Assembly (NCBI GenBank): GCA_001773725.1
Contig: MEXP01000027.1
Span: 1 to 55,247, forward strand
Origin: Candidatus Amesbacteria bacterium RIFCSPLOWO2_01_FULL_49_25
Lineage (GTDB): Bacteria > Patescibacteriota > Microgenomatia > CAZETR01 > Amesbacteraceae
Length of the DNA: 55,247 nucleotides
Reading direction: 5' to 3'
A program made the position numbers and the translations under genes. This document shows, one piece after another, positions 1,071 through 23,900 of this stretch (positions within the stretch are counted from its first letter, which is position 1; every line of letters begins with the position of its first letter). Below the pieces are notes generated by a model that saw only the letters and a program-made list of their open reading frames with translations, made no database searches and was not told the origin of the DNA.

Positions 1071-1077
1071 CCCCAAC

Positions 1078-3701: not shown

Positions 3702-3714
3702 ATCTCAATTTTCA

Positions 3715-5013: not shown

Positions 5014-5025
5014 TAGAATCGGAGC

Positions 5026-5658: not shown

Positions 5659-5750
5659 CTTGTAGTATTTGTGTAATTTGAATGTGGAGTTCGAACACAA
5701 TTTGTGTTTTGGTGATTGACAATGAATGGTAAAAGTGGTTCTATATATTC

Positions 5751-5915: not shown

Positions 5916-5963
5916 ATTAAGAGACTGGTCAATAGAGAGCGATAGTGGAGTAAAATATGGTGG

Positions 5964-6035
5964 CGGGGTGTAGTGAATCGGTATCACGCTACGTTCGGGA
6001 CGTAGAAACAGAGGGTTCAATTCCCTCCACCCCGA
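5964..6035 (+). tRNA. tRNA-Pro, anticodon CGG (CCA not encoded)
   Basis: Acceptor CGGGGTG/CACCCCG, D-stem GTGA/TCAC, anticodon arm CTACG-TTCGGGA-CGTAG, T-arm GAGGG-TTCAATT-CCCTC; C1:G72 and A73. Confidence 0.93.
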
Positions 6036-6039
6036 CATT

Positions 6040-6114
6040 GACCCCGTAGCTCAATGGATAGAGCAAGGGTTTCCTAAACCTTAGATGCAGGTTCGATTCC
6101 TGCCGGGGTCACCA
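6040..6114 (+). tRNA. tRNA-Arg, anticodon CCT, CCA encoded
   Basis: Acceptor GACCCCG/CGGGGTC, D-arm GCTC-AATGGATA-GAGC, anticodon arm AGGGT-TTCCTAA-ACCTT, T-arm GCAGG-TTCGATT-CCTGC, ends ACCA. Confidence 0.96.
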
Positions 6115-6129
6115 AGTGAAATCGATGAA

Positions 6130-6372
6130 CTAGTGGAGGAAGACTTCGAAGTGGCTGGGGCCGATGATATATCCCGGGCCGGGGGAACGCTCGGTGATAA
6201 TTTCGCCGCTGGGGGTAAGTCTGGTGCAGTTGAGTTCTAAAGTTGCTCCTCGGCCCGAAGTACTCAAGACTTCTATGACGGTGATGGGATAGCAGGATTC
6301 TTTGAGGGGGTTGCAGGCGGCCAGGGTGAACGAGGCGATGACTAGGAGTGATGCGGCACGGTGGGGGAGCAT
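6130..6372 (-). CDS. small putative lipoprotein
   Basis: Hydrophobic N-terminus ending in a lipobox-like LAAC; start lies 1 nt after the PEGA gene stop. Confidence 0.55.
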   Translation of the reverse strand: MLPHRAASLLVIASFTLAACNPLKESCYPITVIEVLSTSGRGATLELNCTRLTPSGEIITERSPGPGYIIGPSHFEVFLH

Positions 6373-6373
6373 G

Positions 6374-7627
6374 TTATCTGAGGCTGACGGCGTAGAGGTT
6401 GGGTTGGGAGGAGAGAGAGGGATTTAAGTTGGAGAGGATGAGTACCTGCTTGCCGGAAGGGTAAGGGAAGGCGTAGCTGTTTTCCATTGGACCGGAGTAG
6501 ACCACGGTAGGGTTGGTGGAGTCGTATTCCATAATGGTAACTTGCTTGTCGTTGACCTTGATGAGGTGGCCGGAGTCGGGAAACCAAGACCAACCGGCGT
6601 TGGCAGTAGTAGGGAGCAAGGGTGACGCGGCGAGGGTTTTTGATTTTTTGGGGAGGCTGAGGCCGAGGCTGGGGCTGGGAGTGGGGACAGTACCTTCGTC
6701 TATGGAGAAGTTGCGGTCTTCCTCGAGATCATAGACATAGACGCGGCTGGGGATGAGGTATCTTTGTTGAGGTTGAGAATTGGAGCCGGGAAGGGGTTTT
6801 TTGAGGATGTCGGGGATATAGGCTGAGGCGGTGGCGGTGTACAGGAGTTTGTTTTCTTTGGGTGACCAGACGAGGCTGGCGGAAGAAGTGGCCAAAGTTT
6901 CGACTAAAATGGGAGACAGAGTGGACAGTTTTTGGAAATCGAGCAGGGTTTGGCGCTGGAGCCAGTTGGCGAGGGTGGTGGAGGTGACGGTCAGGGTGGA
7001 AGTGGTTGAGGAAGTGTCGACTAAATACGCTGAAGAAGAAGCGGTGTCTACGAGGATTTGGCGGGAGTTCGGGGACCAGATTAAATTTGCAACCCGCCAG
7101 TTGGCGGGGAGGTTGGAAATTAACTTTGGTTCGCGGTTGATGAGGCCCAAGGGTGATTCGGTGAGGTCAAGAAGATAGAGACGGGGTGAAGTCGGTTGAG
7201 TGGATTGGATAAAGGCCACATGGGTGCCATCCGGTGAGAGCGACGGAATAGCGGCACCGGAGGAGGTGATGGCTTTGAGGGAGGGGACGGAAGGAAAGAG
7301 AGTGGCGGAGGCGCGAGTGACGATTTCCGGTTCTAAGGTCAAAGTTTTTTTCCAGGGTTGGAAACCGTCTTTTTTGATTTCGACTTCGTAATGCCCGGGT
7401 GAGAGATTCGTGGTGGTGTTGGTGGCGGAGAGAAGCGTGCCATTGATGTAAATTTGGGCGCCGTCCGGATTGGATGTGGCGACCAGAAGGCCGGTGGGGC
7501 TGATGGTTTTGGTGGACGGGTCGGGGCGATAGCCGCGGGCGAAAAGTATAACTAAATATGTCAAACTGGGGACTAGTATGAGACCGGCGACAAAGAGTAG
7601 AATCCGGAGTGTCACGGTTTTTTGCAT
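6374..7627 (-). CDS. membrane-anchored PEGA-domain / beta-propeller (TolB-like) protein
   Basis: True start is probably MQKTVTLRILL at 7627, as the longer ORF overlaps mreB. N-terminal TM, PEGA (GLLVATSNPDGAQIYINGT...LSPGHYEVEIKKDGFQPWKK), then SPDG/WSPN/WFPD propeller motifs. Confidence 0.8.
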   Translation of the reverse strand: MQKTVTLRILLFVAGLILVPSLTYLVILFARGYRPDPSTKTISPTGLLVATSNPDGAQIYINGTLLSATNTTTNLSPGHYEVEIKKDGFQPWKKTLTLEPEIVTRASATLFPSVPSLKAITSSGAAIPSLSPDGTHVAFIQSTQPTSPRLYLLDLTESPLGLINREPKLISNLPANWRVANLIWSPNSRQILVDTASSSAYLVDTSSTTSTLTVTSTTLANWLQRQTLLDFQKLSTLSPILVETLATSSASLVWSPKENKLLYTATASAYIPDILKKPLPGSNSQPQQRYLIPSRVYVYDLEEDRNFSIDEGTVPTPSPSLGLSLPKKSKTLAASPLLPTTANAGWSWFPDSGHLIKVNDKQVTIMEYDSTNPTVVYSGPMENSYAFPYPSGKQVLILSNLNPSLSSQPNLYAVSLR

Positions 7628-7640
7628 AGACTGATTATAT
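7627..7640. promoter_or_regulatory. overlapping divergent -10 elements (PEGA gene / mreB)
   Basis: Minus strand TATAAT (7639-7634) lies 6 nt before ATG 7627. Plus strand TAGACT (7627-7632) lies 8 nt before ATG 7641. Confidence 0.55.
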
Positions 7641-8651
7641 ATGTTCTCTTTGTCTAAAAGGATAGGAATTGATTTGGGGACGGCGAATAGCCTGGTGTGG
7701 CTGGCCGGGCGGGGGATTGTGGCGAATGAGCCGACGGTGGTGGCGGTGAAGATTGATGATGGACAGGTGATTGAGGTGGGAAATGCGGCCAAGGAGATGC
7801 TGGGGAAAACTCCGGGCAATATCCGGGCGTCCCGGCCGATGCGGGACGGGGTGATTGCTGATTACCGGGTGACTGAGGCGATGTTGAGGTACTTTATCCA
7901 GAGAGTATGCGGGAGGGTGTTTTTGTTTAAACCGGAGGTGATGATTTGTGTGCCGGCGGGTGTGACTCAAGTGGAGCGGCGGGCGGTGTTGGATGCGACC
8001 TTGGCATCCGGGGCGAAGACGGCGTATCTGATTGACGAACCATTGGCGGCGGCGATTGGGGCGAAACTACCAATTGCGGCGGCGTCGGGGAACATGATTA
8101 TTGATATCGGCGGGGGATCGGCCGAGGCGGCGGTGATTTCACTGGGAGGAGTGGTGGTGCATAAAAGTGTGCGGGTGGCGGGCAACAAACTGGACGAGGC
8201 GATAATAAATTACATGAAGCGCCGGCACAATCTGATAATCGGGGAGACCACGGCCGAGGAGGTAAAAAAGAGAATCGGTTCGGCGACTGTCTTGCCGGTG
8301 GAGGAAACTATGGAGGTGAAGGGGCGGGACAGTGTGACTGGGCTGCCGCGGGCGGTGGTGGTAAGCAGTACCGAGATCACCGAGGCGATTCGGGCGGTAC
8401 TGACGCAAATTGTGGGGGCGGCCAAAGGAGTGTTGGAACAGACGCCGCCGGAGTTGGCGTCCGACATCATCGACAAAGGGATTGTGATGAGCGGGGGGAC
8501 TTCAGTCCTTCGAAACTTTGACCGGTTTATGACTGAGTTGACGGGGGTGCCGTGTCATGTGGCCGAGGAGCCGCTGTTGTGTGTGGTGCGGGGGACGGGA
8601 GTGGCTATTGAGAATTTGGACTTGTATAAGAAGAGTGTTAGTCGGAGGTGA
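7641..8651 (+). CDS. mreB: rod shape-determining actin homolog MreB
   Basis: IGIDLGTANSLV, EPTVVA, RPMRDGVIAD, IIDIGGGSAE, VMSGGTS. Confidence 0.97.
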   Translation: MFSLSKRIGIDLGTANSLVWLAGRGIVANEPTVVAVKIDDGQVIEVGNAAKEMLGKTPGNIRASRPMRDGVIADYRVTEAMLRYFIQRVCGRVFLFKPEVMICVPAGVTQVERRAVLDATLASGAKTAYLIDEPLAAAIGAKLPIAAASGNMIIDIGGGSAEAAVISLGGVVVHKSVRVAGNKLDEAIINYMKRRHNLIIGETTAEEVKKRIGSATVLPVEETMEVKGRDSVTGLPRAVVVSSTEITEAIRAVLTQIVGAAKGVLEQTPPELASDIIDKGIVMSGGTSVLRNFDRFMTELTGVPCHVAEEPLLCVVRGTGVAIENLDLYKKSVSRR

Positions 8652-11296: not shown

Positions 11297-12202
11297 TCAA
11301 GCCAGGGAATATGAGGTGGAGCGGCCGTGACCGTGGGGGATGACAAAATTTAGGGTGGAAAGTTTGGCCAGGTCTCGTGAGGCGGTGACTTGGGAGACGC
11401 GGAAGTGGGATTGGACCTTTTGATTGGTTATGGTGGACCCGGGGATTTCGATGAGGGAAAGGATGGACTTTTGGCGATCGGATAGTTGCCAGCCGGAGAG
11501 GGGGTGGTTTGAGGGTGCCGGTTGCGACAGACGGGAGAGAAGGGAATCCATTTGATTGACCAAGGCGGTGCAGTAAAATTCGAGCCAGAGGGTGATTTGG
11601 CCCAAGCGGGTGGCCGATTGGAGAACCTTGAGATAGTCGGTTTTGTGCTCGTTCCAATAGTTTTCCATGGCCAGAAGCCGATTGAGATCAAAGCCGGATT
11701 TGTAGAGGATAAGCAGGGATGCCAGGTAGGCCAAGCGGCTGGGATAAAAGTAGAGGTGCAGAATTGCAGATTGGATAGCGGGGTGAACCGGGCCGGTTTG
11801 AACGTAGCCCAAAAGAGAAGTGACTTCCTCTTCGTGGTGGAAACTGACCCCAAGGATATTGGCCAACTGTTTGAGATCGAGTGTAGTAGGGGACTTGGGG
11901 TTGGCGGTCCATTCATACCAGATGTGGTCTAATGCCCGGCGGTAATCGAGGGCTTTTTTTATGAAGGGAGTGGAGGTGCGATTGTCACCCGGGCCGAGAA
12001 GAATTTGTTCTATGGCTTGAGGAGAGAGGGGTTGATTGGAAAGCTGGGCCCAGCCGGAAAGATGAGAAAGCGTCGCCGACCAAACCAAGCGGTGATAATT
12101 TAAGGGGGAGAGGGGAACGAGGAGAATTTGGCTCTTGAGCTTGTCGATTTTTTTGAGGGAGATTTCCAGGGTAGGGGAGAGGTTGTACGAGAAAATTATC
12201 AT
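11297..12202 (-). CDS. Fic-like protein lacking the catalytic motif, with C-terminal winged HTH
   Basis: Fic-type scaffold (HPAIQSAILH...LILYKSG...YLKVL...WLEFY), but HPFxDGNGR is absent. C-terminus LSDRQKSIL...VQSHFRVSQVTASRDLAKL is a DeoR-like wHTH. Confidence 0.7.
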   Translation of the reverse strand: MIIFSYNLSPTLEISLKKIDKLKSQILLVPLSPLNYHRLVWSATLSHLSGWAQLSNQPLSPQAIEQILLGPGDNRTSTPFIKKALDYRRALDHIWYEWTANPKSPTTLDLKQLANILGVSFHHEEEVTSLLGYVQTGPVHPAIQSAILHLYFYPSRLAYLASLLILYKSGFDLNRLLAMENYWNEHKTDYLKVLQSATRLGQITLWLEFYCTALVNQMDSLLSRLSQPAPSNHPLSGWQLSDRQKSILSLIEIPGSTITNQKVQSHFRVSQVTASRDLAKLSTLNFVIPHGHGRSTSYSLA

Positions 12203-12209
12203 ATAGTTA

Positions 12210-12238
12210 TTCTTATCATTATCTTATCAGTGTGTCAA
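12210..12238 (-). promoter_or_regulatory. sigma70-like promoter of the Fic-like gene (leaderless)
   Basis: TTGACA (12238-12233), 17-bp spacer, TGA-TAAGAA (12215-12210), 7 nt to ATG 12202. Confidence 0.6.
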
Positions 12239-12311
12239 GAGACAATAAAATTCTAGATTTTGAAGCTAAATTAGATACTTAAGATAAGTAAATGACAAGA
12301 TTATCTTATCT
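12211..12311. repeat. repeated (T)CTTATC motif, candidate operator sites
   Basis: TCTTATC at 12211, 12222 and 12304. ATTATCTTATC is identical at 12218-12228 and 12300-12310. AGATAAG(12282-12288)-N16-CTTATCT(12305-12311) is an inverted pair. Confidence 0.55.
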
Positions 12312-12323
12312 GTAATCTGCAGG

Positions 12324-12352
12324 TTGACAGTTGATATCTAACTGACCATACT
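12324..12352 (+). promoter_or_regulatory. sigma70 promoter for tatA1 and the 842-aa gene
   Basis: TTGACA-17 bp-CATACT. The -35/spacer carries the near-palindrome CAGTTGATATCTAACTG. SD AAAGGAGGTGAT at 12367-12378. Confidence 0.7.
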
Positions 12353-12383
12353 GGAATAAGTTAATGAAAGGAGGTGATTGTGC

Positions 12384-12530
12384 ATGTTCCAAAATTTAGG
12401 TACTACTGAACTGTTGATTATCGCGGCGGTGCTTTTGGTTCTGTTTGGCGGAAAGAAGCTTCCCGAACTTTCTCGGGGAGTGGCTGACTCAATCCGCGAA
12501 TTCCGAAAAGCGACCAGAGAAGATGCCTAA
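12384..12530 (+). CDS. tatA: TatA/E-family protein, copy 1 (48 aa; not in ORF track)
   Basis: MFQNLGTTELLIIAAVLLVLFGGKKLPELSRGVADSIREFRKATREDA*: TM with polar E, FG hinge, amphipathic helix; perfect SD. Confidence 0.92.
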   Translation: MFQNLGTTELLIIAAVLLVLFGGKKLPELSRGVADSIREFRKATREDA

Positions 12531-12535
12531 GCGAT

Positions 12536-15064
12536 ATGACAGCGACTGTCCAGATCGCTATTGTAAAAAAAGCAATTTTGGCGTCGACAGTGATAACAGC
12601 TGCGGCCCTGGTATCCCCTTTGATTACCAGGGCTTCGGCTGGATCACCGCAAATTTGCGCTGCGGAGTCGAGCTGCAGTATCGGCGAATTTTTGTTTGAT
12701 GACGAATACACTCCAATAACGAGCGGAACTTGTACTATCACCAGCCGTTACCCCGACGGAAGTTTATTTTTGAATTCCCAAGCCATGACGGGTTCCTCTG
12801 ATGGCTGGTATGCTTATTCTTTTACCACGCCTTCGACAACCGGGTATTACCGAACACAAGTCTGCTGTACGGTGGGGACAGATTATTTGTGTGTGGATAA
12901 GGCTTTTGAGTCGTCCGAGAGTTCGGGATTGACTGCAAGCAGTATAGCCGCGGCTGTGTGGGGATACAGCAGTCGGACGATGACGGGGTTTGGCACTTTG
13001 GTATCTGACATATGGGGTTATTCTTCCAGATCGATGACTGGATTTGGGACACTAGCTCAGGACGTTTGGAATCACAATCCCCGAAAATTGACGGAGAGTG
13101 GAAGTAACCTTTCTGAGATAGAAAGAATTGTTAAAGAAAACCGGATAATGCTGGAAAGACTGGTAAATAAGCCAATCGTGCAAAATTTTATAGAAGAGGA
13201 TGGACCTGAGCTGTCGCAGATACTGCCTCAGTCCCGCACAACACTTGATGAATTGTATCTGGATACCCAGGTGGTGGCCAGCAAAATGGGGGTAGTGATG
13301 CTGTCCTGGGAAGATTTGACGGGAGAGGAAATAGAAGGGACACTGGGTGAGCTGCAAGCCACGGTGGGAAACGAGGAAGACAAGGCGGGGTCGGATTCGG
13401 TGATTGGTCAACTGGATTGGGTAGTGGATACCTGGGATTGGGAAATTGCTCGGACAGCCCGGGCGCAAGCGGTTGAATTGTCCCGGAGGCTGGTTGGAGC
13501 CGAACGGTCATTAAAGGGCGTAGGGGGCTTTAAGGCGGCTTACCAAGAGGCAAAGTCGGCGCTGGCTCAGGTTGAAGTATTGGAGAAGACGGTTGGTAGC
13601 GGGGAAGACGGGACAGAAGGCAAAACGGTTTATTCCCAGCTAGCGGAAGTTATAGATCTGGCACAAAAATGGGATCAGCACCAAGCCCGGGTGGATAAAC
13701 TGTTGACGGGATGGAATGTCCAAAAGGCCGTCGAATTACAGGGGGAGATCGAGATGGTAAAAAGTGACGTTCTGGCGGTTAACCGGGTTCCCAAGGGAAG
13801 TATCGCGATAAACGAAGCTTTTGGAGCCAACGAGGTCGATAAAAAGTTGAAGAATAAGCTGTTGGCCCTGCGGGGGCTGATTGATTTGAACCGGAGGTAC
13901 ATAGTTTCGGGAGCGGGGGACGGGATGGCTTACACGTGGCTGGAGGAAGGCAGTGTGATTTTTAAGTCGGTGGTGACAAACCCTTCAAAGATTATCGGGC
14001 AGGAAGTGGAAGTGAAATATTACTTGCCGCCGGAAGTGCGGGAAGAGGATATTTTAGACAAGGACGAGGGATTGGAAGTTAAGTATGACTCGGAGAAAGA
14101 TCAATACTACGTGGAAGGTAAATTTTTGCTTAAGGCTAGTGAAAGTCGCACGCTGGCGGTGCGGGTGGAGGATATTTGGGTGATAACAGACGAAGAAATT
14201 AACAGTTTGAAAAACCAGGCTGAAGAGTTGGCTAGACCTTTGGAGAAAACGGCGTTTTTTGCCCAGGGCGTGACTTTGAAAAGCGATATCGACGTGGCTT
14301 TGGACAAAATCACGGTTTTGATCAAAACGGCGATAACCCCGGAGCAGAAGATCCGATCTTATCGGGAGGCTCAGATTGAGATGGGCGGAGTAAAGATTAA
14401 GATGGAGAAACTGAAAGACTTGGTGGTTCAGGCTAGTGCCACCGGGGGCCTGTTGGGGTTTGTGGGCGGAGCCCAGGCATTGGCGGTGTGGGGACTGATC
14501 ATAATTTTACTGGCGGGTTTCGTGTTTTTGGCGGTATACATGAAGATGATATCCGGGCACGGGGTAAAGGTGAGAGTAGAGTCGGATGAGGACGATGAGG
14601 AGGAAAAGAGAGAGCCTGTAAAACAGCACCATCGCTCCGGCGGTCACGGGACGGGGTGGAGGATCGTAACTACGGCGATCGTGGCGGCGCTAATATCGGG
14701 GACGACGTCCGGAGTGGTGATGCGGCAAATGGTGCTGTCTCAGGTTGAGGCCAAGGTGGTGGAGGAGAAACCGGAGCAAAAGATCGTTGAGCAGGTTGAA
14801 CCTATATTGGAAACCGAAGTGATGGGGGAGAATACGGAGCAACCAGCTGTCGGCGGGCCGGATGTAGTCAGGATCGTGGTGGAAGAAGGGGGTTATGTTA
14901 ATTTCCGAGTCGGGCCGGGCTTGGGCGAAGAGGTAGTTGCTAAGTTATTGAAGGATGAGGAAGTGGTTAGGGTTTCGGAGAAGGGGGATTGGGTGGAGGT
15001 GGAGAGAGAAGACGGGACGGTCGGGTGGGTGGCGGCCAAGTTTGTAGTAGCTGGGTCAGAGTGA
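12536..15064 (+). CDS. large exported membrane-anchored protein with C-terminal SH3b domain
   Basis: Signal peptide ending RASA, Cys-containing beta domain, 18-aa Trp repeats, long helical region, TM pair, and C-terminal YVNFRVGPG...GDWVEV...GWVAAKFV (SH3b). Confidence 0.8.
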   Translation: MTATVQIAIVKKAILASTVITAAALVSPLITRASAGSPQICAAESSCSIGEFLFDDEYTPITSGTCTITSRYPDGSLFLNSQAMTGSSDGWYAYSFTTPSTTGYYRTQVCCTVGTDYLCVDKAFESSESSGLTASSIAAAVWGYSSRTMTGFGTLVSDIWGYSSRSMTGFGTLAQDVWNHNPRKLTESGSNLSEIERIVKENRIMLERLVNKPIVQNFIEEDGPELSQILPQSRTTLDELYLDTQVVASKMGVVMLSWEDLTGEEIEGTLGELQATVGNEEDKAGSDSVIGQLDWVVDTWDWEIARTARAQAVELSRRLVGAERSLKGVGGFKAAYQEAKSALAQVEVLEKTVGSGEDGTEGKTVYSQLAEVIDLAQKWDQHQARVDKLLTGWNVQKAVELQGEIEMVKSDVLAVNRVPKGSIAINEAFGANEVDKKLKNKLLALRGLIDLNRRYIVSGAGDGMAYTWLEEGSVIFKSVVTNPSKIIGQEVEVKYYLPPEVREEDILDKDEGLEVKYDSEKDQYYVEGKFLLKASESRTLAVRVEDIWVITDEEINSLKNQAEELARPLEKTAFFAQGVTLKSDIDVALDKITVLIKTAITPEQKIRSYREAQIEMGGVKIKMEKLKDLVVQASATGGLLGFVGGAQALAVWGLIIILLAGFVFLAVYMKMISGHGVKVRVESDEDDEEEKREPVKQHHRSGGHGTGWRIVTTAIVAALISGTTSGVVMRQMVLSQVEAKVVEEKPEQKIVEQVEPILETEVMGENTEQPAVGGPDVVRIVVEEGGYVNFRVGPGLGEEVVAKLLKDEEVVRVSEKGDWVEVEREDGTVGWVAAKFVVAGSE
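12929..13093 (+). repeat. three 18-aa (54-nt period) in-frame Trp repeats
   Basis: IAAAV-WGYSSRTMTGFGTLVSDI-WGYSSRSMTGFGTLAQDV-WNHNPRKLT; Trp codons at 12959, 13013 and 13067. Confidence 0.85.
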
Positions 15065-15466
15065 TCCTTGGAGGTAGCGGTTGTAGAGATAATGGATAAG
15101 GATGGCGGGCGGGAGGCCTAAGATAACCAGGTGCCGGTATTTGAGCCCCGGGAGAAGAATGATAATGCTGGTGAAAGCGTGGAGGGGGAGAGTGACGGCG
15201 AGGCGGAGAAAGTACTGGGCCATGTTGCCCCAGGCCAAAAAGTTGAAGAGATACAAAACGCTTTCGGAAAATCCAAACAGCAGTCCGGTAAGAGCGGCGA
15301 AGAGCAGTTTTGTCCTGACGGGGGCGGATGGCCAACCGATGTAGATGACGGCGGCTTTAACGAGTTCTTCGACTAGGAAGGGAAGGGGCAGGAGGAGTTC
15401 TAGCGGCCAAATGAGGAAGGGGGCGATCAGGGCCAAAAGCGGCGCGATGAGGCTACTTGTCGTCAT
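15056..15466 (-). CDS. PrsW-family intramembrane glutamic protease (minimal, 136 aa)
   Basis: VEELVK (EExxK), FGFSE (FxxxE), LRLAVTLPLH, IHYLYN (HxxxN); multi-TM. Confidence 0.8.
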   Translation of the reverse strand: MTTSSLIAPLLALIAPFLIWPLELLLPLPFLVEELVKAAVIYIGWPSAPVRTKLLFAALTGLLFGFSESVLYLFNFLAWGNMAQYFLRLAVTLPLHAFTSIIILLPGLKYRHLVILGLPPAILIHYLYNRYLQGSL

Positions 15467-15602
15467 TTTTCAGGCCCTTTTTGAGTTCCCTGACGGCCTC
15501 ACCGAAACCCTTGCCCAGTTCCGGGAGTTTCTTGCCGCCAAAAAGGACCAGCAAAATGACTAAGATGATGATTAATTCGGTAGTACCCAAATTTTGAAAC
15601 AT
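15453..15602 (-). CDS. tatA: TatA/E-family protein, copy 2 (49 aa; not in ORF track)
   Basis: MFQNLGTTELIIILVILLVLFGGKKLPELGKGFGEAVRELKKGLKNDDK*; SD GGGGGTGA; overlaps the PrsW-like start. Confidence 0.92.
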   Translation of the reverse strand: MFQNLGTTELIIILVILLVLFGGKKLPELGKGFGEAVRELKKGLKNDDK

Positions 15603-15619
15603 TAATGTTCACCCCCTTT

Positions 15620-15757
15620 TTATTTCGAAGCTTTTTTATATTCTTTTATAGCTTCGCCGATGCCCTTGATAAACTCGGGGATTTTTTTACCCCCGAAAAG
15701 AAAGATTAAAATGGCAATAATTATTATTAATTCGGTAGTACCGAGGTTCCGCAACAA
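15620..15757 (-). CDS. tatA: TatA/E-family protein, copy 3 (45 aa, TTG start; not in ORF track)
   Basis: MLRNLGTTELIIIIAILIFLFGGKKIPEFIKGIGEAIKEYKKASK*; SD AAAGGACGGTGA overlaps the tatC stop. Confidence 0.9.
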   Translation of the reverse strand: MLRNLGTTELIIIIAILIFLFGGKKIPEFIKGIGEAIKEYKKASK

Positions 15758-15762
15758 GATAA

Positions 15763-16506
15763 TCACCGTCCTTTCTTAATTAAGAATCGGTTTAATAGTA
15801 ACGTAAGTTCGAATAAAAAAACAAGGGGGACAACTAGAAGAATGTCGGACATAATATCGGTGGGCGGCAGAAGCATGACGAACATCAGGGAGACGGCGTA
15901 AGCTATGGGACGCTGGCGGGAGAGAACTTTGATGGTGATGACTTTGAGATGTATTAATATGCTCATCAAAATGGGGAATTGGAAGGCCAAACCCAAGGCC
16001 AGGCCGGTGAGGACAATTTTGGTGAGTAAGAGTTCGATGTCTAAGATATTGCCTATATGGAGCTCCAGAGATTTTTGGTAAAAGATGGCCACGACGTATT
16101 TCATGACGGTTATGCCATAGAGAAATCCGCAGACTAGGAGGAGAAGTGAGAGAGGGAGGGGGAGGGTCACCAGTTTGAGCTCTTTTTTGGACAAGGCCGG
16201 TTTTAGAAACGACACCACTTGATAGATGATGAAGGGAAAGATGGCAATCAGGCCTACAAACATGCCGGAGTTGATGGCCAGGGTGAAGAACTGGAAAGGC
16301 GACGTAAAGACGACGTTGATTCCCTCGAGGTTGAGAAAACCCAGGACAAAAGTGACAAGTTTTTCGTAGTAGAAGAAACCTATCGAGGCGGTGATAAGAA
16401 AGAGGGAGGCCAAAAAAAGGAGGCGCTTTCTGATCTCGAGCAGGAAGGGAAAGTATTTGTTGATGGTGGTTTGGAGTTCGGGGGTGAGGACAGCGGTGTC
16501 GGGCAT
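15763..16506 (-). CDS. tatC: twin-arginine translocase subunit TatC
   Basis: LLEIRKRLL, TSPFQFF, PFIIYQVVSFLKPALSKKE, GLAFQFP, PPTDIMS...PLVFLFE; six TMs. Confidence 0.93.
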   Translation of the reverse strand: MPDTAVLTPELQTTINKYFPFLLEIRKRLLFLASLFLITASIGFFYYEKLVTFVLGFLNLEGINVVFTSPFQFFTLAINSGMFVGLIAIFPFIIYQVVSFLKPALSKKELKLVTLPLPLSLLLLVCGFLYGITVMKYVVAIFYQKSLELHIGNILDIELLLTKIVLTGLALGLAFQFPILMSILIHLKVITIKVLSRQRPIAYAVSLMFVMLLPPTDIMSDILLVVPLVFLFELTLLLNRFLIKKGR

Positions 16507-16515
16507 GACTAGATG

Positions 16516-16677
16516 TTACTCTTTTTTCTTGAGAGTTTCACCCTCGGCGGCGCCTTTTTTGTACTCTTTGATCGCTTCGCCGATACCTCTTATGAACTCG
16601 GGGATTTTCTTACCGCCGAAAAACAGAAGCAAAAGTGCGAGAATGATGATGAGTTCGGTGGCGCCTAGGTTGAACAT
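16516..16677 (-). CDS. tatA: TatA/E-family protein, copy 4 (53 aa; not in ORF track)
   Basis: MFNLGATELIIILALLLLFFGGKKIPEFIRGIGEAIKEYKKGAAEGETLKKKE*. Confidence 0.92.
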   Translation of the reverse strand: MFNLGATELIIILALLLLFFGGKKIPEFIRGIGEAIKEYKKGAAEGETLKKKE

Positions 16678-16682
16678 AAGAT

Positions 16683-16847
16683 TTAGCTGTCGTCTGAGTC
16701 GGCGGCAATTTCTGATTTGATCTTTTTAACTTCTTTGGCCGCTTCGCCCATCCCGCGGGCCAGTTCGGATAGCTTTTTGGAGCCAAAGAATAGGAGGAGA
16801 AGGACGAGGATGATGACCAGCTCCGCGGTGCCGATATTGGAAAACAT
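16683..16847 (-). CDS. tatA: TatA/E-family protein, copy 5 (54 aa; not in ORF track)
   Basis: MFSNIGTAELVIILVLLLLFFGSKKLSELARGMGEAAKEVKKIKSEIAADSDDS*. Confidence 0.92.
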   Translation of the reverse strand: MFSNIGTAELVIILVLLLLFFGSKKLSELARGMGEAAKEVKKIKSEIAADSDDS

Positions 16848-16852
16848 ATACT

Positions 16853-17047
16853 TTAGGATTCTTGGGGTTTATCTGATTTATCGGTAACGGCGCTCTCGAA
16901 CTCGGCCTTGACCTTCTTGAGTTCCTTGGAAGACTCGCCCAGGCCGTGTGACAGCTCTTTGACTTTTTTGCCGCCGAAGAGGATCAAAAGTATGGCGGCG
17001 ATGATAAGGAGTTCGGTGAGACCGATATTTTTTATAAAGTCGAACAT
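16853..17047 (-). CDS. tatA: TatA/E-family protein, copy 6 (64 aa)
   Basis: MFDFIKNIGLTELLIIAAILLILFGGKKVKELSHGLGESSKELKKVKAEF...; TATACT 6 nt upstream of the ATG. Confidence 0.92.
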   Translation of the reverse strand: MFDFIKNIGLTELLIIAAILLILFGGKKVKELSHGLGESSKELKKVKAEFESAVTDKSDKPQES

Positions 17048-17112
17048 AACCTAAGTATATAGAACCTTAATGAACTATTGTCAATGGTCGCATGCCCGAT
17101 CAGACTGCAAAT

Positions 17113-17295
17113 TCATGTGTGACCGGTATAGTCGGTATTGTTTTCCTGGAAGTTGGCTTTGGGGTCGAATTCGAGCTGGGGAGGGGCGGGGGGCGGGGGA
17201 GGAGATTTCTTCTTGCCGCCGAGCTTGAGGGCGCCGCCAAAGAGGACTAGGGCCAGAAAGCCCAAGATGCCGAGTTCGGTGCCGGAAAGCTGCAT
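17113..17295 (-). CDS. TatA-like single-TM peptide with poly-Pro tail (60 aa)
   Basis: MQLSGTELGILGFLALVLFGGALKLGGKKKSPPPPPAPP...: the TEL...LFGG TM matches the TatA copies, but the amphipathic helix is replaced. TATAGT lies 8 nt upstream. Confidence 0.55.
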   Translation of the reverse strand: MQLSGTELGILGFLALVLFGGALKLGGKKKSPPPPPAPPQLEFDPKANFQENNTDYTGHT

Positions 17296-17337
17296 GTGGT
17301 TTTACTATAATAAGTCGGATAAAATTTGTCAATTATT

Positions 17338-17967
17338 ATGGCGAAAAGTATCGATTATGTTTTGTTTGATTGGGACGGGTGTCTGGCTCGGACAATGCAT
17401 TTGCTGCTTCGGGCACTCAAGACGGAGCTGGGCAAGCAGGATTTGCGGCTAACCGATAAACAGGTAATCAGGTATATGTTTGGGAATTGGCTGGGAGGCT
17501 TGCGGTATTGGGGAGTGGCCGATGCGGAAGAGACGGTAGTCAAGATAAAAGAGGAATATGATAAGAAGAAAGGTGAGGTGAAGCTCTACGCCGGGGTGAA
17601 GGAGACACTGAGGAGACTTGTGAAGCGGGGCAAGCGGCTGGGGGTAATTAAGCTGGAGGGAGATGGAAATGAGATTCGACCTCTATTGGGGATAGAATCC
17701 GTACAGATCTTTACCGGCCGGGACTTGGCGGGGGAGAAGCCGGAGGCCAAGGTTTTGGAGCGGGCGGTGGAATTGCTGGGAGGTCGGAAGGCGGAGACGT
17801 TGTGGGTGGGTAATTCAGTGAATGATTTGGAAATGGGACGGGGGGCCGGGGTGGAGACGGTGATTTTTTGTCCGGCTGAAAATGAGAAGTTTGGGAACAG
17901 TAAAATATTGGAGGCGGAAGGGGTGCGGGTAATAGGGGAGTTTAGGGAGCTGTTAAAAATAGTTTGA
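17338..17967 (+). CDS. HAD-superfamily hydrolase (partly degenerate motifs)
   Basis: LFDWDGCL (motif I), KPEA (motif III), WVGNSVND (motif IV with D>N). Confidence 0.8.
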   Translation: MAKSIDYVLFDWDGCLARTMHLLLRALKTELGKQDLRLTDKQVIRYMFGNWLGGLRYWGVADAEETVVKIKEEYDKKKGEVKLYAGVKETLRRLVKRGKRLGVIKLEGDGNEIRPLLGIESVQIFTGRDLAGEKPEAKVLERAVELLGGRKAETLWVGNSVNDLEMGRGAGVETVIFCPAENEKFGNSKILEAEGVRVIGEFRELLKIV

Positions 17968-18537: not shown

Positions 18538-19842
18538 TTACTTAAGGGAAGCAAGCGTGGCTTTGGTTTTGGCGTCTTTGAGTGTCCGGCCGGTGGTGCC
18601 GGCGGTGGTGTGACCGGAGATGACTTCGTCCCAGACGGCGTCGGCGATTTCGGAAGCGGAGGCGCCGCCGGCTTGGGATTCAATAAAGGTGCCGGTACCG
18701 AGGTCACGGGTGCTGCCGGCAGTGTTGCCGGAGAAGGTGTGGTGGAGACGGACGCCGGTGCGGGTGACTCCGGTGCCGACGTCGATGCCATAACCGGTAT
18801 TGTTGTAGATAAGATTGTTTTCGAAAATATTGTCGGAGATGGAAGTGCCGCCTAAGTTGGCTCCATCGGCGCCCGAGCCGGAAATGATGCAGGTACTGAT
18901 GATTGATTGCGATACAGAGTTGCCTATATTGATACCGTTTGATGTGGAACTTTCGATGGCACAGGTTTGAATGCTGGTGCGAGTGGAAGAGGATAAATCG
19001 ATGCCGTTGGCGGTAGCGGTATTTATCCAGCAGTCTTTGACGAGGGCATTGTCTCCGGTAATGGTGATGCCATTGACTGAGCCGCCGGCGGTGGGTTGGA
19101 CATAAAGACCGGAGACCTCGACATTATCGGCGGTGACGGTAATCGGGACGGTGGAACTTAAAGTGGGTTTGATTTGGAAGGGGTAACCTGGGCCGCGGAC
19201 TTTGAGGTTGTTTTTGGTGATAGTCAGGCTTTCGGGGACCGTGGTTATGCCGCCGCTGGCTGTGGAGAGGCAAAAGATAATGTCGTTGTTGCCGGCGGTG
19301 GCAAGTGTTTGGGCCTTGGCGAAGGTGAGGACGGCGGTGGATGGCTGGAGGCCATCGTTGGTATCAAGGCCGCCGGCAGGGTCCCAGTACCATATGTTAC
19401 CAAGAGTCTGATGTTTACCGCGCAGGGACTCGATGAGGTAGAGCATATTGAGATCTTCGGGGGGAGTAATAATAGTAGGGGAGGAGGATTGGGCGATGAT
19501 CACCGTGACGTAGTCGGATGGTTTGATGGGGTTGTTGCTGAAGGTGTTGGTAGCCACGAGGTTTCCACCCCGGACATAAACCGTGATGGTAGGGGGCGCT
19601 CCGGGTGATTCAAACTGGATACGCCAGTCGTTGATAAGGACCATGGTGATACCGACCTGGGCTCCGCCGCCCAGATCCTGCTTGCCAAAGGCATTGCAAA
19701 TGTGGCCGTAGTCCAGAAAATCCAGCTCGTCTTCGTAGTCCCTGATTGCATTAACCAGTTCCTGAATAGTGACAGAAGTGCCTTCCACCGGATCGTCGAC
19801 TTGAATAACCCGGTCGAACTTAAAAAAAGTCAGCGTGGCCAT
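18538..19842 (-). CDS. signal-peptide-less fibre-like protein with right-handed beta-helix (pectin lyase-like)
   Basis: N-domain TIQELVNAIRDYEDE...GKQDLGGG...GITMVLINDW; beta-helix ITVTADNVEVSGL, GITITGDNALVKDCWI, IYNNTGYGIDV; C-terminal EIADAVWDE. Confidence 0.7.
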   Translation of the reverse strand: MATLTFFKFDRVIQVDDPVEGTSVTIQELVNAIRDYEDELDFLDYGHICNAFGKQDLGGGAQVGITMVLINDWRIQFESPGAPPTITVYVRGGNLVATNTFSNNPIKPSDYVTVIIAQSSSPTIITPPEDLNMLYLIESLRGKHQTLGNIWYWDPAGGLDTNDGLQPSTAVLTFAKAQTLATAGNNDIIFCLSTASGGITTVPESLTITKNNLKVRGPGYPFQIKPTLSSTVPITVTADNVEVSGLYVQPTAGGSVNGITITGDNALVKDCWINTATANGIDLSSSTRTSIQTCAIESSTSNGINIGNSVSQSIISTCIISGSGADGANLGGTSISDNIFENNLIYNNTGYGIDVGTGVTRTGVRLHHTFSGNTAGSTRDLGTGTFIESQAGGASASEIADAVWDEVISGHTTAGTTGRTLKDAKTKATLASLK

Positions 19843-19851: not shown

Positions 19852-20916
19852 CTATATCTGTTCTAAAAATATAGAGACCGATAGTCTGGGGACGAGCTCG
19901 GCACCTGAATCGGGAACGAAGGTGATATCAGTAGGGATTTTGGCGGCCAGGTAATCGGTAGTGCCCAGGGAGGCGGCTAAAATGCTTTTGATAGCGTGAT
20001 CAAACGAGCTGCCCTGACTGAGGGCGGTTTTGAACGGGGCCTGGGGTAGTTCCCTTTGCCTGAATGTCTGGTTTGGTTTGTCCAGCTCGAAGAAGACGGG
20101 AGTAATGAATAGGTTCGTTTCCACTCGATGGCTATTAAAACCGGAAAGATTGGTTATTTGATCAGTTTTTGACCAGCTGTGATAAAAGTTTGTGGAGATC
20201 AGTCCCCGGTCAAACAAAGCTATAAAATGGCTTAAATCCGCGGCCACGGCGACGCTGAAGTTGGGGACTTTGGTCAATTTACCCTGGCGGTGGGTCAGGT
20301 ATTCCAAGAGGTGTCTGTTGACCAAATGAACGCGGTCGGAGGCGAGTTCTCGGGCATAATAGACCAGACTGTTTCTGTAGTTGAACAGAGGTTCTAAGCC
20401 TTGGATTGAAAATACCGCCCTAAGCATGGGTTCGACCTCGATGGTGGTCAGATCCAGCAAATTTGGCTCGTTGACCAGGAAGCAGCCGAGTACGGGGTTG
20501 TAAACACGAAACTCGTGCCGGGGGGCAACATTTCTTAGAAGGTTTATCGATGTGTTATCGATTTTCTCACAGGTGAGGATTATTCGGTCCGGGGGCGCGA
20601 TCGAGAGGTGAGAAACTACCGGAGAATCGGGGTAGGTAATAGTAGTGTCGGAGTCTGATTGTTTGAGCAGACCAATGTCCCCGAATGTGGCTAGATAGTC
20701 CAGGATTGATTTGTAGTCCTGGAGCAGGTTGGCCGGAGGGGTGCTTTTTACCAAATGAAAGAAGACCGGGCGGGCGAAGGAACTACTGGGGAGTTCCAGC
20801 AGAATTTTCAGCTTTGAGCTGGAGCCGCTGGAGCTCGGCTGTGAGCGTGGCTTTGAGGACAATTTGTTTTTGGACTTCATCAGAAAATATTTTAATATTA
20901 TTTTCGGCGCGGGCAA
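19852..20916 (-). CDS. hypothetical protein (up to 354 aa; start uncertain)
   Basis: Long open ORF within the operon. The N-terminal ~45 codons overlap the 66-aa ORF and are low complexity, so the true start may be later (e.g. TTG 20754). Confidence 0.65.
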   Translation of the reverse strand: MPAPKIILKYFLMKSKNKLSSKPRSQPSSSGSSSKLKILLELPSSSFARPVFFHLVKSTPPANLLQDYKSILDYLATFGDIGLLKQSDSDTTITYPDSPVVSHLSIAPPDRIILTCEKIDNTSINLLRNVAPRHEFRVYNPVLGCFLVNEPNLLDLTTIEVEPMLRAVFSIQGLEPLFNYRNSLVYYARELASDRVHLVNRHLLEYLTHRQGKLTKVPNFSVAVAADLSHFIALFDRGLISTNFYHSWSKTDQITNLSGFNSHRVETNLFITPVFFELDKPNQTFRQRELPQAPFKTALSQGSSFDHAIKSILAASLGTTDYLAAKIPTDITFVPDSGAELVPRLSVSIFLEQI

Positions 20917-20985: not shown

Positions 20986-23900
20986 TTAGTCGACGATAGA
21001 GTCAAAGGTACGAATAGCGGCGACTGAAGCTCCCGATGAGGTGAATGTACCAGCAACCTCGAACGGCAGGATGCCCTTGCGGCGGACACGGGAAAGAATG
21101 GGGATGTCGCTGACGTAAACGATGGTGTTGGAAACGCTGGTGGTGGTAGCCTGCTGTTCGATGAGGACCACAAAGGCGTTATCACCGGTACTTAGATTTA
21201 GACCCCCGGTGGTATCTCCGATATCTCCCGAGGTCAGGGTGAACCTGTTTGAATTTCTGTCTACTGCCGAGTATGCGAAGGAAAGGTATAGTCCGGTATC
21301 GGCGGGAGAGAGGACCCGCAGGGTGGCACTGGTGGGAACATCGGAGGGAAGGGGAGAGGCGGTGCGGGTGTTTTGGGATACTTCGATAAGGGTGGAAATG
21401 GAGCTGTTAACCGTGGTGTTAATCGCATTGCTAATTTTGAATTCGGTGGTGAGAATATTGCCTCCGGAAGTTCGAAACACAGCCACCCGGTCTCCGGATA
21501 CCAGACCCGTGACCTGGAGGGTCTGCTGGTTGGGCGGATTGCGGACTGTGCCGTTGGAGTCAATGAGCTGGAAAGCCCGGACATCGGCGGTAGCCATGTC
21601 TTCCACAAATACACCCCGGGCGCCGAAGAAAGTACCTCCGGCGAAGGTGCCCAAGGGGGAAGCTTTCACCAGGGCAAAAGCGGTATCTTGAGTAATATAG
21701 AGGCGGCCCTGTTTGCCTGATTCGGAGCCTTTGCCGCCTAAGAGACTGTAAGCTGGTTCTCCGGTTCTTTCCAAGCTCCTGGTGCGGTACTTTACCCACT
21801 CGTACATCCGGGCCAGAGTGTCTCCATCCGCTTGATTATCCCGATTGAGGTAGACGACGGCGTTGTAGGGCTGGTTGCCATTGCCGTCTTGGATGTCTCT
21901 TTGAATTTGGGTGGCGACGGTAATGGTGGCGGTGAAAGTGGCGGTGGCGCCAGAGGTCGCCCCAGTGACACTTTCGCCCGAGGCGAAGGCGGTTGACTGG
22001 GTAATGTTTCCTACGGTGATGACGCTGGCCCCGTCATCGGCCATAAAGATGCCGGAAGCCGAGGAGGTGCCGCCGGTGATTTGTTCACCATCAATGAAGT
22101 TGGTGGTTCTATCTGAGTAAGTAAACGTGCCTTCGACTGTGGCGACGATAATTCTGGAACCGTAACCGGCGACCAGGTTTGAAGGAGAACCGTTGACCGA
22201 GGAGACTTGAGTTGAAATCTGACCAACAATATGGTCGTTGTCGGCAAAATTGGTGGAGGGGGTGAGTAAAATATAGTCCAAGGTTCCGGTACTGGTTCCG
22301 GATACGGCGGTAATGATGCCTCTTTTGGAAGCATTGGTGGTGCGAATTTCCTCGCCGGAGGTATAGGCTCCGCCCGCGTCATAATTTAGTCTGCTGGTTC
22401 CGGTAGTATTGTTGAGGTCGCTGGCGGTAGCTAAAGGGATAGGAGCGACACCGGCGATAGTGGTCGTTTCGAAGTGGTCGTAGGTGTCGCCATAGTTTCT
22501 ATTAAAGATGGTGACGGTACCGCTGTTGATCAGGGCTCCGGTGCTGGAAACGGTTTTGGAGGTATCGGTATTGGTTTTGACTTTGACCAGGGCGTCAATG
22601 TGCCCGGTGAGCCAGAAAGTGTCTATGACCGAACCATTTTGTTCGATGTAGAACTGGGGCAGGGGAGTAGTGGCGGCGTAGACGGTGTTGCCGATTCCTT
22701 CCACGGATCCCAGGGTCTGGTAATTGGTCCAAATGTTGTCCAGACCTGAGTCCTGAATGGATCCAGATTCAATGAAACGGAACGATAAATCGGGAATTTT
22801 CCAACCGTTGACCAAAGTAAACTGCTGTAAGGCGACTTGGGCGGTCATGGGGACGTCGTCGTCCAAAGCTCCCAGCTCGTCAAAAGTGTCCTGGAGGTAG
22901 GTATATAAAGCGTTTGAATCCCGGACAATGTTTAAGCTGCCGCCGTTGTAGATCCCGCCTTGAGAAAGGAGCTGTTCGACAATCGGAGAGCCGTTGACGT
23001 CGGCAACTTTGTCCAAGAAGTCACTGGCTGCATTGGGGGCATTGATATCGGCGGCATAGGTATCGGAAGTGGTCCTAATAACAATGGCGTCGTTGTCAAA
23101 CAACGATTGGCCGGCGGTTAGACCTTGAACGGTGAGTTTACTATTGGTGGTGTCGACAGTGATGATTTTGCCGGTAGCGTGGGTATTGGTTCCCCCTGAG
23201 GTCCGGGTGATTAATTTATCGCCAATTTTGAAGGTGACGCCGGATTGAAGATTGTCATAAGGGATTTTGAGGACATAAATTTCATCATTGTTGGCCCAAG
23301 TATCGTCGGTATCGACTAATTTGAGTGATCCGGTCAGGGTTACGCCGTAGACGCGCTGGACCACGGCCGATTTGCCGGCGGAAAAGTTATCGGTGCTTCT
23401 GATGGTAGCAAAGCGGGGTATTGCTTCCGTACCGCCGTCGAAATTGATAATGGCAGAGATATCTGACGAGGGAGGGGAGATGGTTCCGCCAGAGGCCTCG
23501 TTGACAACTGACCCGGTCCAGGCGTCACCCGGAACTTCCGCTCCCGAGACGACGGCTACTTGCGTACCTGATTTTTGGATGATTTCGGCATCGGCAAAAG
23601 TAGTTTGACCCTGTCGGCCATAAACGTTGCCGGCGCTGTTGGCAGTTTGGAGGGCCTGCGTATAGTGATATTCAATGGCCTTGACAGAAAAATTGGCTCC
23701 GTTGGTGGTGGTTAAGGTGTCGCCGACCACAAAGCCGCCATTTGTTACAGTGGCAAAATAGATCGAGTCCAGGGTCTCCAGAGTCTCGGCATGAGTGAAG
23801 CGGTTTTGAACATTGGTTAGGGCTATGGTGCCATTGGAAGTAGTATCAGTGATGTCCTGGCCTACGGTTCCCAATATTTTTCCCAGGGCCGTGCTGGTTA

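Follow-up and report, generated by a model that had tools for sequence, protein, structure and literature searches.

Several bacteria are known to carry more than one TatA-family protein for twin-arginine translocation (Tat), and how the receptor and pore roles are shared among such proteins is still being worked out. In Escherichia coli, one TatC works with TatA, TatB and TatE, among which the roles are divided, and a structure of the TatA1B2C3 core complex from 2026 places three TatA/B sites on each TatC trimer (PMC13323110). Bacillus subtilis has three TatA proteins for two TatC proteins, with pairwise specificity (TatAd-TatCd and TatAy-TatCy), and a further, auxiliary paralog there, TatAc, probably associates with one of the other TatA proteins (PMC5777986). 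Campylobacter jejuni has two paralogs, TatA1 and TatA2, encoded at separate loci of a TatABC system with a single TatC and many known redox substrates, and experiments show that the two differ in the substrates they support (PMC4148689). One TatC with four tatA genes is already known from Desulfitobacterium hafniense DCB-2, where the genes are scattered and the 5-Mb genome is rich in cofactor-bearing Tat substrates (PMC3306737). Here we describe a tat locus of Candidatus Amesbacteria bacterium RIFCSPLOWO2_01_FULL_49_25, a groundwater member of the Microgenomates in the candidate phyla radiation (CPR), found on contig MEXP01000027.1 (positions 1 to 55,247; this whole stretch of 55,247 nucleotides is called the window). 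We consider it likely that this is a genuine TatAC-type translocase locus, in which six long-lived TatA paralogs and a helix-less TatA-derived peptide would all serve one TatC.

The likeness to B. subtilis includes the lack of a dedicated TatB, short bifunctional TatA proteins, several paralogs and a monoderm-type envelope, and it extends to a tat operon that adjoins the gene of a client (phoD-tatAd-tatCd in B. subtilis); the difference lies in six TatA proteins here, and up to eight in relatives, for one TatC. Bacillus TatA proteins have an FGP hinge and a transmembrane (TM) helix without an acidic residue, whereas here the hinge is FGG or FGS and a TM glutamate is invariant. As in E. coli, one TatC accompanies several TatA-family proteins; the polar residue that docks at TatC, at TM position 8, is present, as are the TatC residues E15, F94, L99 and E103. 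Unlike in E. coli, there are six copies and not three, and all carry Glu, as TatB does, and not Gln. With D. hafniense the locus shares a high TatA:TatC ratio in a TatAC-type system, with more than three TatA proteins to a single TatC (PMC3306737), but here six or seven genes lie together in two neighbouring operons, within a small CPR genome, fall into conserved positional orthogroups and have specific neighbours. C. jejuni resembles it in combining paralogs with a single TatC. In sum, the locus has the look of a canonical TatAC system whose TatA family has diversified across the clade.

Six TatA copies around one TatC

The tat genes and the promoter-like sites that head their two operons are as follows, with the six TatA-family copies named A1 to A6, lengths in amino acids (aa), and the alignment column of E. 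coli TatA F39 given as the F39 column.

12324..12352, plus strand: promoter-like TTGACA-17-CATACT, 5' of A1; 10/12 consensus matches, a consensus match only
12384..12530, plus strand: A1, TatA family, class I, 'opp' (opposite-strand) orthogroup, 48 aa, Phe at the F39 column; PF02416 57.3 bits, TIGR01411 58.5 bits
15453..15602, minus strand: A2, TatA family, class I, 'd1' (downstream) orthogroup, 49 aa, Leu at the F39 column; PF02416 54.7 bits, TIGR01411 64.5 bits
15620..15766, minus strand: A3, TatA family, class I, 48 aa, GTG start, Tyr at the F39 column; PF02416 41.8 bits
15763..16506, minus strand: tatC, 247 aa, the sole TatC of the window; PF00902 123 bits
16516..16677, minus strand: A4, TatA family, class I, tatC-proximal 'u1' orthogroup, 53 aa, Tyr at the F39 column; PF02416 41.4 bits
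16683..16847, minus strand: A5, TatA family, class II, 54 aa, Val at the F39 column; PF02416 41.0 bits
16853..17047, minus strand: A6, TatA family, class II, 64 aa, Leu at the F39 column, acidic tail; PF02416 36.8 bits
17113..17295, minus strand: seventh peptide, 60 aa, TatA-derived by its conserved motifs, with an ortholog in the related locus L081
17304..17332, minus strand: promoter-like TTGACA-17-TATAGT, 9 nt 5' of the seventh-peptide ATG; 11/12 consensus matches, a consensus match only

We observed that tatC and five of the TatA copies form one tight operon on the minus strand, whose genes are separated by 5-17 nt or overlap: the GTG start of A3 overlaps the tatC stop by 4 nt, and the gene of a 136-aa protein, described below, overlaps A2 by 14 nt. 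The sixth copy, A1, lies 3.2 kb off on the opposite strand, has its own GGAGG ribosome-binding site and stands 5 nt upstream of the gene of an 842-aa protein; this pair is convergent with the tat operon. TTGACA-17-TATAGT is the best consensus match in 12100-17500 and, predicted from that match, marks the putative start of the tat operon; because it lies directly upstream of the seventh peptide, the latter is probably the first gene of the operon. Two contigs, independently assembled from two metagenomes, span 12300-17400 with 0 differences, which rules out an assembly artefact or a collapsed repeat.

The initial annotation had read six short TatA open reading frames (ORFs) around one TatC, in the order A6-A5-A4-C-A3-A2-prsW with A1 on the opposite strand, and this was borne out: coordinates and order hold, and the lengths are 48-64 aa. 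Searches with hidden Markov models (HMMs) gave 36.8-57.3 bits for the six copies with PF02416 (cut-off 21) and 123 bits for TatC with PF00902 (cut-off 25.1). With the stricter TIGR01411 (cut-off 53.9), only A1 (58.5) and A2 (64.5) score above, and A4 (53.4), A3 (48.8), A5 (46.6) and A6 (39.9) below, the best NCBIfam models for the six copies being always of the TatA/E type. An alignment to TatA, TatB and TatE reference sequences confirmed that all six copies have Glu at the polar site of the TM helix, an FG hinge (FGG or FGS) and no GP hinge, and that the residues at the F39 column of A1 to A6 are F, L, Y, Y, V and L. Across the clade, Glu is found in 228 of 231 TatA copies and the FG hinge is universal. 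The second helix is amphipathic in all six copies, with hydrophobic moments of 0.54-0.69 compared with 0.21-0.29 in shuffled sequences, at most 0.6% of which score higher. By their architecture, model scores and linkage to tatC, the six copies belong to the TatA/TatE family, and a role in twin-arginine export is predicted for them. The TatB-like features among them are the conserved Glu and, in A5 and A6 (and A2) only, an aliphatic residue at the F39 column.

The match of TatC to PF00902 covers model positions 3-208 of 208, and the stricter equivalog model TIGR00945 scores 105.7 bits, under its cut-off of 132.7. There are 948 homologs, and those with names come from Woesebacteria and Daviesbacteria. 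The nearest TatC, of P0002, is 90% identical, but no contig is recorded for it. Roles have been assigned in E. coli TatC to H12, E15, F94, Y100 and E103 and to a polar cluster (M205, T208, Q215) that receives the TM helix of TatA or TatB (PMC13323110). In an alignment to the E. coli chain of the cryo-EM structures, E15, F94, L99 and E103 correspond to E24, F100, L105 and E109 of the window TatC, and these four are invariant in 16 Microgenomates TatC proteins. Since both of the glutamates that contact the arginines are present, conventional recognition of twin-arginine signals is the default expectation.

Spread, age and classes of the copies

A TatC alignment search yielded 80 loci from species-representative genomes, nearly all of Microgenomates or other Patescibacteria, and TatA copies were counted by scanning six-frame ORFs of these loci with an HMM built from the window copies. 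The counts reach about 8 kb either side of tatC and are lower bounds per genome: at least two copies are found in 74 of the 80 loci. Among the 54 loci with full flanks (2 kb or more on the upstream side of tatC and 6 kb or more on the downstream side), one copy is found in 2 loci, two in 20, three in 13, four in 14, five in 2, six in 2 and eight in 1, so that 52 of the 54 have at least two copies and 19 at least four. Two layouts are seen most often: a pair of copies upstream of tatC (28 loci), and such a pair joined by one downstream copy and one on the opposite strand 3-4.5 kb off (16 loci). The layout of the window (three upstream, two downstream, one opposite) is at the high end; one locus, L002, is higher, with eight copies. 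In L081, whose TatC is 77% identical, the layout is the same as in the window, and public gene calls there already bear PF02416 matches. The view of the initial annotation that the array is unusual holds in part: the number is high compared with model systems (three in E. coli, three in B. subtilis, two in C. jejuni; PMC5777986, PMC4148689), but multiple copies are the norm of the clade and not specific to this genome.

A survey of freshwater CPR bacteria states that Microgenomatia have TatA and TatC, and nothing more (PMC9166423); five of the six TatA genes of the window fall under common ORF-length cut-offs. Our literature search on Microgenomates or Patescibacteria together with twin-arginine transport found no paper linking the two beyond that statement of presence. 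Four ORFs with two HMM domains were considered as fused TatA-TatA proteins and rejected, each being one TatA-family protein that carries a long amphipathic extension of repetitive sequence. These four (L020 2520-2834, L028 7733-8008, L038 1672-1887 and L060 113-448) have 72-112 residues from stop to stop, a TatB-like length, with an extension of the form '...KELKKAKKEF...DKELEKAKKE...', and each is the TatA-family protein of a locus with a single upstream copy.

The window paralogs are only 46-73% identical to one another in protein and 53-70% in nucleotide sequence, and the proportion of synonymous differences (pS) between them is saturated (0.67-0.95), which rules out recent duplication or gene conversion. 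Their orthologs in other species are closer, at 71-89% amino-acid identity, also with saturated synonymous sites. A4 finds its best matches among u1 copies elsewhere (71% to u1 of the locus L001), A2 among d1 copies downstream of tatC (up to 80%) and A1 among opposite-strand copies (83%; 85% to the L001 ortholog). A5 is 78% identical to u2 of L001 and 89% to its L081 ortholog, and A6 has 83% core identity to u4 of L001. A3 matches u5 of L002 (80%) and u3 of L001 (75%), as well as the L081 ortholog in its own position (85%), and was apparently relocated downstream of tatC from an upstream u3/u5 type.

The same comparisons bear on selection, for the initial annotation had named relaxed selection (dN/dS near 1) as a result that would count against it. 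The ratio of nonsynonymous to synonymous substitution rates (dN/dS) against L081 is about 0.10 for A4 and about 0.02 for A5. The proportion of nonsynonymous differences (pN) of A6 is 0.18-0.21 at pS 0.81-0.85, and pN/pS of A1 against L001 is 0.11. A2 to A6 are 72-89% identical to their L081 counterparts (TatC 77%), with pN of 0.08-0.18 and pS of 0.56-0.86; pN/pS of all six against L001 is 0.11-0.27, and overall pN is 0.08-0.21 for pS of 0.56-0.88. The copies are thus not decaying, with pN/pS of 0.1-0.27 at saturated pS, and are at least as constrained as tatC. Among 236 copies, the nearest foreign neighbour shares the positional label in 87%, compared with 23% after shuffling, the opp copies being most coherent (31/31), with d1 at 41/43. 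For 97% of copies a foreign copy beats every paralog of the same locus (median identity 81% versus 53%). The copies are old positional orthogroups under purifying selection, not recent duplicates, and by every evolutionary criterion that the sequences make available the genes appear functional.

Clustering sets the distal upstream 'u2' type apart from all others, which gives two deep classes. In class II the median length is 63 aa, the F39 column holds I, L, V or M in 57 of 65 u2 copies, and the consensus is ...NISPTE...FG.K......GE..KEIKKIKK.F. Class I (u1, d1 and opp) has median lengths of 48-51 aa and Phe at this column in 59 of 75 u1, 30 of 43 d1 and 27 of 31 opp copies. A1 to A4 of the window are class I and A5 and A6 are class II. 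E. coli TatB has Leu at this column, aliphatic like class II. The initial annotation had read roles from the variation of this column within the window, but the residue in one genome alone does not define them: A2 (Leu) and A3 and A4 (Tyr) belong to the class that mostly has Phe in relatives, and only A5 and A6 to the longer aliphatic class. What stands is that two deep, clade-wide classes make a functional split plausible.

The seventh peptide matches no Pfam, NCBIfam or PHROGs model, and an HMM of it gives weak matches, all of which are true TatA proteins. Its ortholog in L081 is 70% identical, with dN/dS of about 0.2, and its relatives number five among 1.84 billion representative proteins. 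In the alignment, the family retains the N-terminus of TatA, with N-[IL]-G-x-x-E-L (LSGTEL in the window), a Glu-bearing TM helix and the FGG hinge; the amphipathic helix is gone, and a linker rich in Pro and the conserved tail DPKANFQxNNTDY stand in its place. The peptide is most fittingly called a TatA derivative restricted to one lineage, which would keep the TatC-docking half, and a role as regulator or adaptor is speculation. A public variant, P0241, is identical but for a 9-residue deletion in the proline-rich linker, which suggests length polymorphism of the linker in natural populations.

The additional class I copies d1 and opp are linked to two further genes of the locus.

12536..15064, plus strand: 842-aa surface protein, co-operonic with A1; SH3_3 38.2 bits
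15056..15466, minus strand: putative mini-PrsW-like intramembrane metalloprotease of 136 aa, encoded at the end of the tat operon; 17 of 19 orthologs match PF13367

The 136-aa protein of the window has no Pfam or NCBIfam match, and none to PF13367 even at E values up to 1, but 17 of 19 orthologs match that model (best E 2.5e-08), and a 'faint' match is on record for the L081 ortholog. The family, present in 40 of the 80 loci and much shorter than typical PrsW, has the invariant residues E33-E34-x-x-K37, F64, E68, R88, H96 and H125-x-x-x-N129 (EExxK, FxxxE, R, H and HxxxN). We take EExxK ... HxxxN/D to be catalytic-type PrsW motifs, and by these motifs the 136-aa protein is a candidate mini-PrsW protease. 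Orthologs of the 842-aa protein are found in 42 of the 80 loci, in a family that is confined to Patescibacteria and unannotated save for SH3. In the 54 full loci, the following occur together with the 842-aa protein, by counts that are not phylogenetically independent: opp TatA in 24 of 24, the PrsW-like protein in 29 of 29 and d1 in 28 of 30. The 21 loci without the module have class II-class I-tatC only. In the distant loci L072, L078 and L079, the 842-aa protein follows tatC-tatA on the same strand, a linkage that outlives rearrangement. Together, the co-occurrence and the linkage in distant loci indicate that the extra class I copies came with, and stay with, the 842-aa/PrsW module.

Roles of the copies and competing explanations

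We propose that TatC would bind twin-arginine signal peptides through E24 and E109 (E15 and E103 in E. coli), that the TM helices of the TatA-family proteins would dock on it by their invariant Glu, and that more protomers would assemble, their amphipathic helices thinning the membrane. In its ancestral state the clade probably had two copies upstream of tatC, a class II copy of about 63 aa with an aliphatic residue at the F39 column and a class I copy of about 50 aa that usually has Phe there. We read the former as a receptor-resident, TatB-like subunit and the latter as a polymerising, TatA-like subunit; because this two-copy state pairs one member of each class, it is reasonable to infer such a TatB-like/TatA-like split. 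The extra class I copies d1 (A2) and opp (A1) would then have arrived together with the mini-PrsW and the SH3-anchored surface protein, and further upstream copies, of the A3 and A6 types, would have been added in the subclade of the window. They are most likely alternative or mixed subunits of the one translocase, either in a hetero-oligomer or as isoforms tied to clients or conditions, and the TatA1B2C3 core is a frame in which different paralogs could fill the receptor sites. The division of labour between pore-forming and receptor copies that the initial annotation had suggested is plausible in this refined form, of class II as against class I and the module-linked copies, with the role of each copy, the formation of a hetero-oligomer and every transport step inferred here rather than shown.

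Several points weigh against our proposal, beyond the lower-bound nature of the copy counts and the shared ancestry behind the module counts given above. The TatB model TIGR01410 is matched by none of the six copies (22.4-35.0 bits; cut-off 56.5), and the hallmarks of TatB, a GP hinge and a long C-terminal extension, are found in none of them, the longest having 64 aa. The TatB-like role proposed for class II draws on length, one alignment column and the ancestral pairing. In the TatC signal-binding site, H12 and Y100 of E. coli are F21 and S106 here; in the polar cluster for the TatA/B helix, M205 is kept as M211, but T208 is P214 (with a Thr two positions on) and Q215 is D221, which also sets this TatC apart from that of E. 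coli. A search for RNA runs containing the region found none. A regular-expression scan of 81 loci found no N-terminal twin-arginine signal peptide, taken as an S/T-R-R-x-F-L-K-like motif with a hydrophobic h-region after it, in any gene of the window or across the roughly 1 Mb that the related loci make up; its matches were the N-terminus of TatC itself, a recurrent false positive, and a few isolated doubtful ones. The transport activity of the locus is accordingly something we assume from conservation.

It is possible, though we rate it below even chances, that the additional copies are client- or condition-specific isoforms, an account that overlaps with our proposal but invokes specificity and not mixed assembly: A1 and A2 would serve the biogenesis of the 842-aa protein, and the mini-PrsW would process it. 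The promoter-like site and ribosome-binding site of A1's own, its place 5 nt upstream of the 842-aa gene, the constant association of opp TatA and the PrsW-like gene, and the near-constant one of d1, with that protein, and the linkage kept in L072, L078 and L079 all speak for it, as do the precedents of B. subtilis TatAd for PhoD and C. jejuni TatA2 (PMC5777986, PMC4148689). Against this, the signal peptides of the 842-aa family are of the Sec type with no conserved twin arginine, so that the protein was rejected as a canonical Tat substrate. A reading as a dual Sec/Tat protein found no support either: only 6 of the 42 orthologs have a twin arginine within the 25 residues before the second TM helix (TM2), and the window protein, with ...GTGWRIV... 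there, has none. The likeness to dual Sec/Tat membrane proteins, such as the actinobacterial Rieske protein (PMC5449189), lies in a Sec-type N-terminus, a basic loop before the final TM helix and a folded extracytoplasmic domain; the differences are that the internal twin arginine before the last TM helix is missing in the window and 36 of the 42 orthologs, and that the C-terminal SH3b domain is cofactor-less. Moreover, specificity in Bacillus resides in TatA-TatC pairs, whereas there is a single TatC here, and the co-occurrence could reflect the shared ancestry of one subclade. In a few orthologs a Tat-signal-like twin arginine does stand just before TM2 ('...DLRRLIKF...' in P0168; '...RRRIRKQVAI...' in P0135, P0136 and P0142).

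Dosage followed by neutral drift, in which tandem copies would raise the TatA dose and diverge without acquiring distinct roles, perhaps becoming mutually dependent by constructive neutral evolution, seems to us unlikely. All copies share the Glu, the FG hinge, the amphipathic helix and the size range, the established model has TatA in super-stoichiometric amounts (PMC13323110), and the copy number varies from 1 to 8 among relatives with no obvious threshold, as a dosage effect would allow. However, the orthogroups are conserved across families (71-89%, compared with 46-73% between paralogs), pS is saturated between paralogs, with no sign of the concerted evolution that dosage alone would lead one to expect, and residues and lengths specific to each class have been kept.

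We regard as quite doubtful the idea that some paralogs, and the seventh peptide above all, act outside Tat, in membrane stress or permeabilisation, or as regulators that compete for the TatA/B sites of TatC. The seventh peptide, first in the operon, does combine the TatC-docking half (Glu-bearing TM helix and FGG) with a new conserved tail, which fits a competitor or adaptor. It is nevertheless confined to a few close relatives and cannot explain a clade-wide pattern, the six full copies keep the whole TatA architecture and are linked to tatC throughout the clade, and no independent evidence points to any such role. We give similarly little credence to the boldest form of our proposal, an obligate hetero-oligomer of up to eight TatA-type subunits with a helix-less regulator peptide, wired to the mini-PrsW and the SH3-anchored surface protein, in which A1 and A2 would translocate or insert parts of the latter (e.g. 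the C-terminal hairpin and the folded SH3 domain) without a classical twin-arginine signal; if true, it would extend TatA-family function beyond twin-arginine-dependent export.

The suggestion of the initial annotation that the six paralogs form a larger or hetero-oligomeric pore for bulky cargo, glycosylated in the cytoplasm by the neighbouring GT41 enzymes, found no support and is highly improbable: about 13 GT41/TPR paralogs do lie at 24.5-44.1 and 49.1-51.4 kb, with large, Ser/Thr-rich, signal-less proteins (1013 aa and a 434-aa beta-helix protein) between them and the tat genes and partly syntenic with tat in relatives, but neither these proteins nor their orthologs have a twin-arginine or other signal peptide, a near-full-length GT41 is close to tat in 3 of 81 loci whereas multi-TatA arrays are clade-wide, and the retained arginine-binding residues of TatC point to conventional, signal-dependent cargo. 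In the established model, it is the amount of recruited TatA, not the variety of paralogs, that scales the translocation site.

If the TatAC-type reading is right, the clade amounts to a natural experiment in unculturable organisms: with genomes of about 1 Mb, they keep one TatC alongside 2 to 8 TatA-type subunits, each distinct and conserved in its own right. In them one can address the features that decide site occupancy, the existence of hetero-oligomeric TatA assemblies and the ties between paralogs and clients. The combination of extra TatA copies, a mini-PrsW and a Patescibacteria-specific surface protein is also a concrete lead on the biogenesis of the CPR cell surface.

Neighbouring genes and other features of the window

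The order [1013-aa]-[354-aa]-[434-aa beta-helix]-tatA run-tatC-tatA-[136-aa], convergent with [842-aa] and the tatA that precedes it, and then a DeoR-type helix-turn-helix (HTH) protein, is conserved synteny. The AlphaFold2 model of the 842-aa protein is confident (predicted local distance difference test score, pLDDT, 77). It begins with a signal peptide and a beta-sandwich, followed by a disordered region of repeats, then by a helical bundle and another beta-sandwich; a stalk helix continues into a first TM helix (TM1), after which come a basic loop, TM2 and an SH3b domain; the C-terminal order TM1-basic loop-TM2-SH3b is found in 42 of 42 orthologs. Invariant Cys pairs are present in the N-terminal beta-sandwich of the family. 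A whole-fold analogue was sought with Foldseek against the PDB, which returned matches to SH3b and Ig/macroglobulin-like domains only.

A further conserved gene lies upstream of the tat operon.

18538..19842, minus strand: 434-aa right-handed beta-helix protein, syntenic neighbour, without a signal peptide; PF13229 41.2 bits

Near full-length orthologs of this protein (48-68% identity) occur in 23 loci, in many relatives on the strand of the tatA run and immediately before it, and it bears a C-terminal 'IADAVWDE...' motif. The idea that it is dedicated cargo, in a position like that of phoD, found no support, no ortholog having a signal peptide, an N-terminal extension or a twin arginine. Between the tat operon and the GT41 cluster it is joined by a 354-aa protein (19852-20916) and the Ser/Thr/Gly-rich 1013-aa protein (20986-24027), likewise without signal peptides, and none of the three has a Pfam (Beta_helix excepted), PHROGs or PDB sequence match. 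An origin of these large neighbours from a prophage or phage tail found no support, with no matches to PHROGs and none to PDB sequences. A related 'AVWGY..R.MT.FG' repeat occurs in the 842-aa surface protein.

The GT41 series comprises about 13 tandem paralogs of 400-770 aa with TPR and GT41 (O-GlcNAc-transferase/HMW1C-like) domains, at 24526-44138 and 49124-51430; the three that were scanned match PF13844 with E values of 1e-37 to 1e-98. For a small genome, this is a striking investment. On the other side of the locus, a 301-aa protein with a C-terminal DeoR-type HTH (11297-12202), encoded beside A1 but on the other strand, shows conserved synteny in 27 loci and is a possible regulator of the locus. 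The window also contains the rplK-rplA-rplJ-rplL region and two tRNAs.

The GC skew of the window (1-55247) is +0.25 overall and up to +0.41 locally, strongest at 1-8000. At third codon positions, the G-skew is +0.42 in plus-strand genes and -0.45 on the coding strand of minus-strand genes: the plus strand is G-rich at these positions regardless of gene orientation, which indicates a mutational strand bias and not a coding effect. Such an extreme asymmetry is shared by some relatives, with skews of -0.53 in L021, -0.45 in L045 and -0.26 in L081, but the median absolute value over 81 loci is 0.075.

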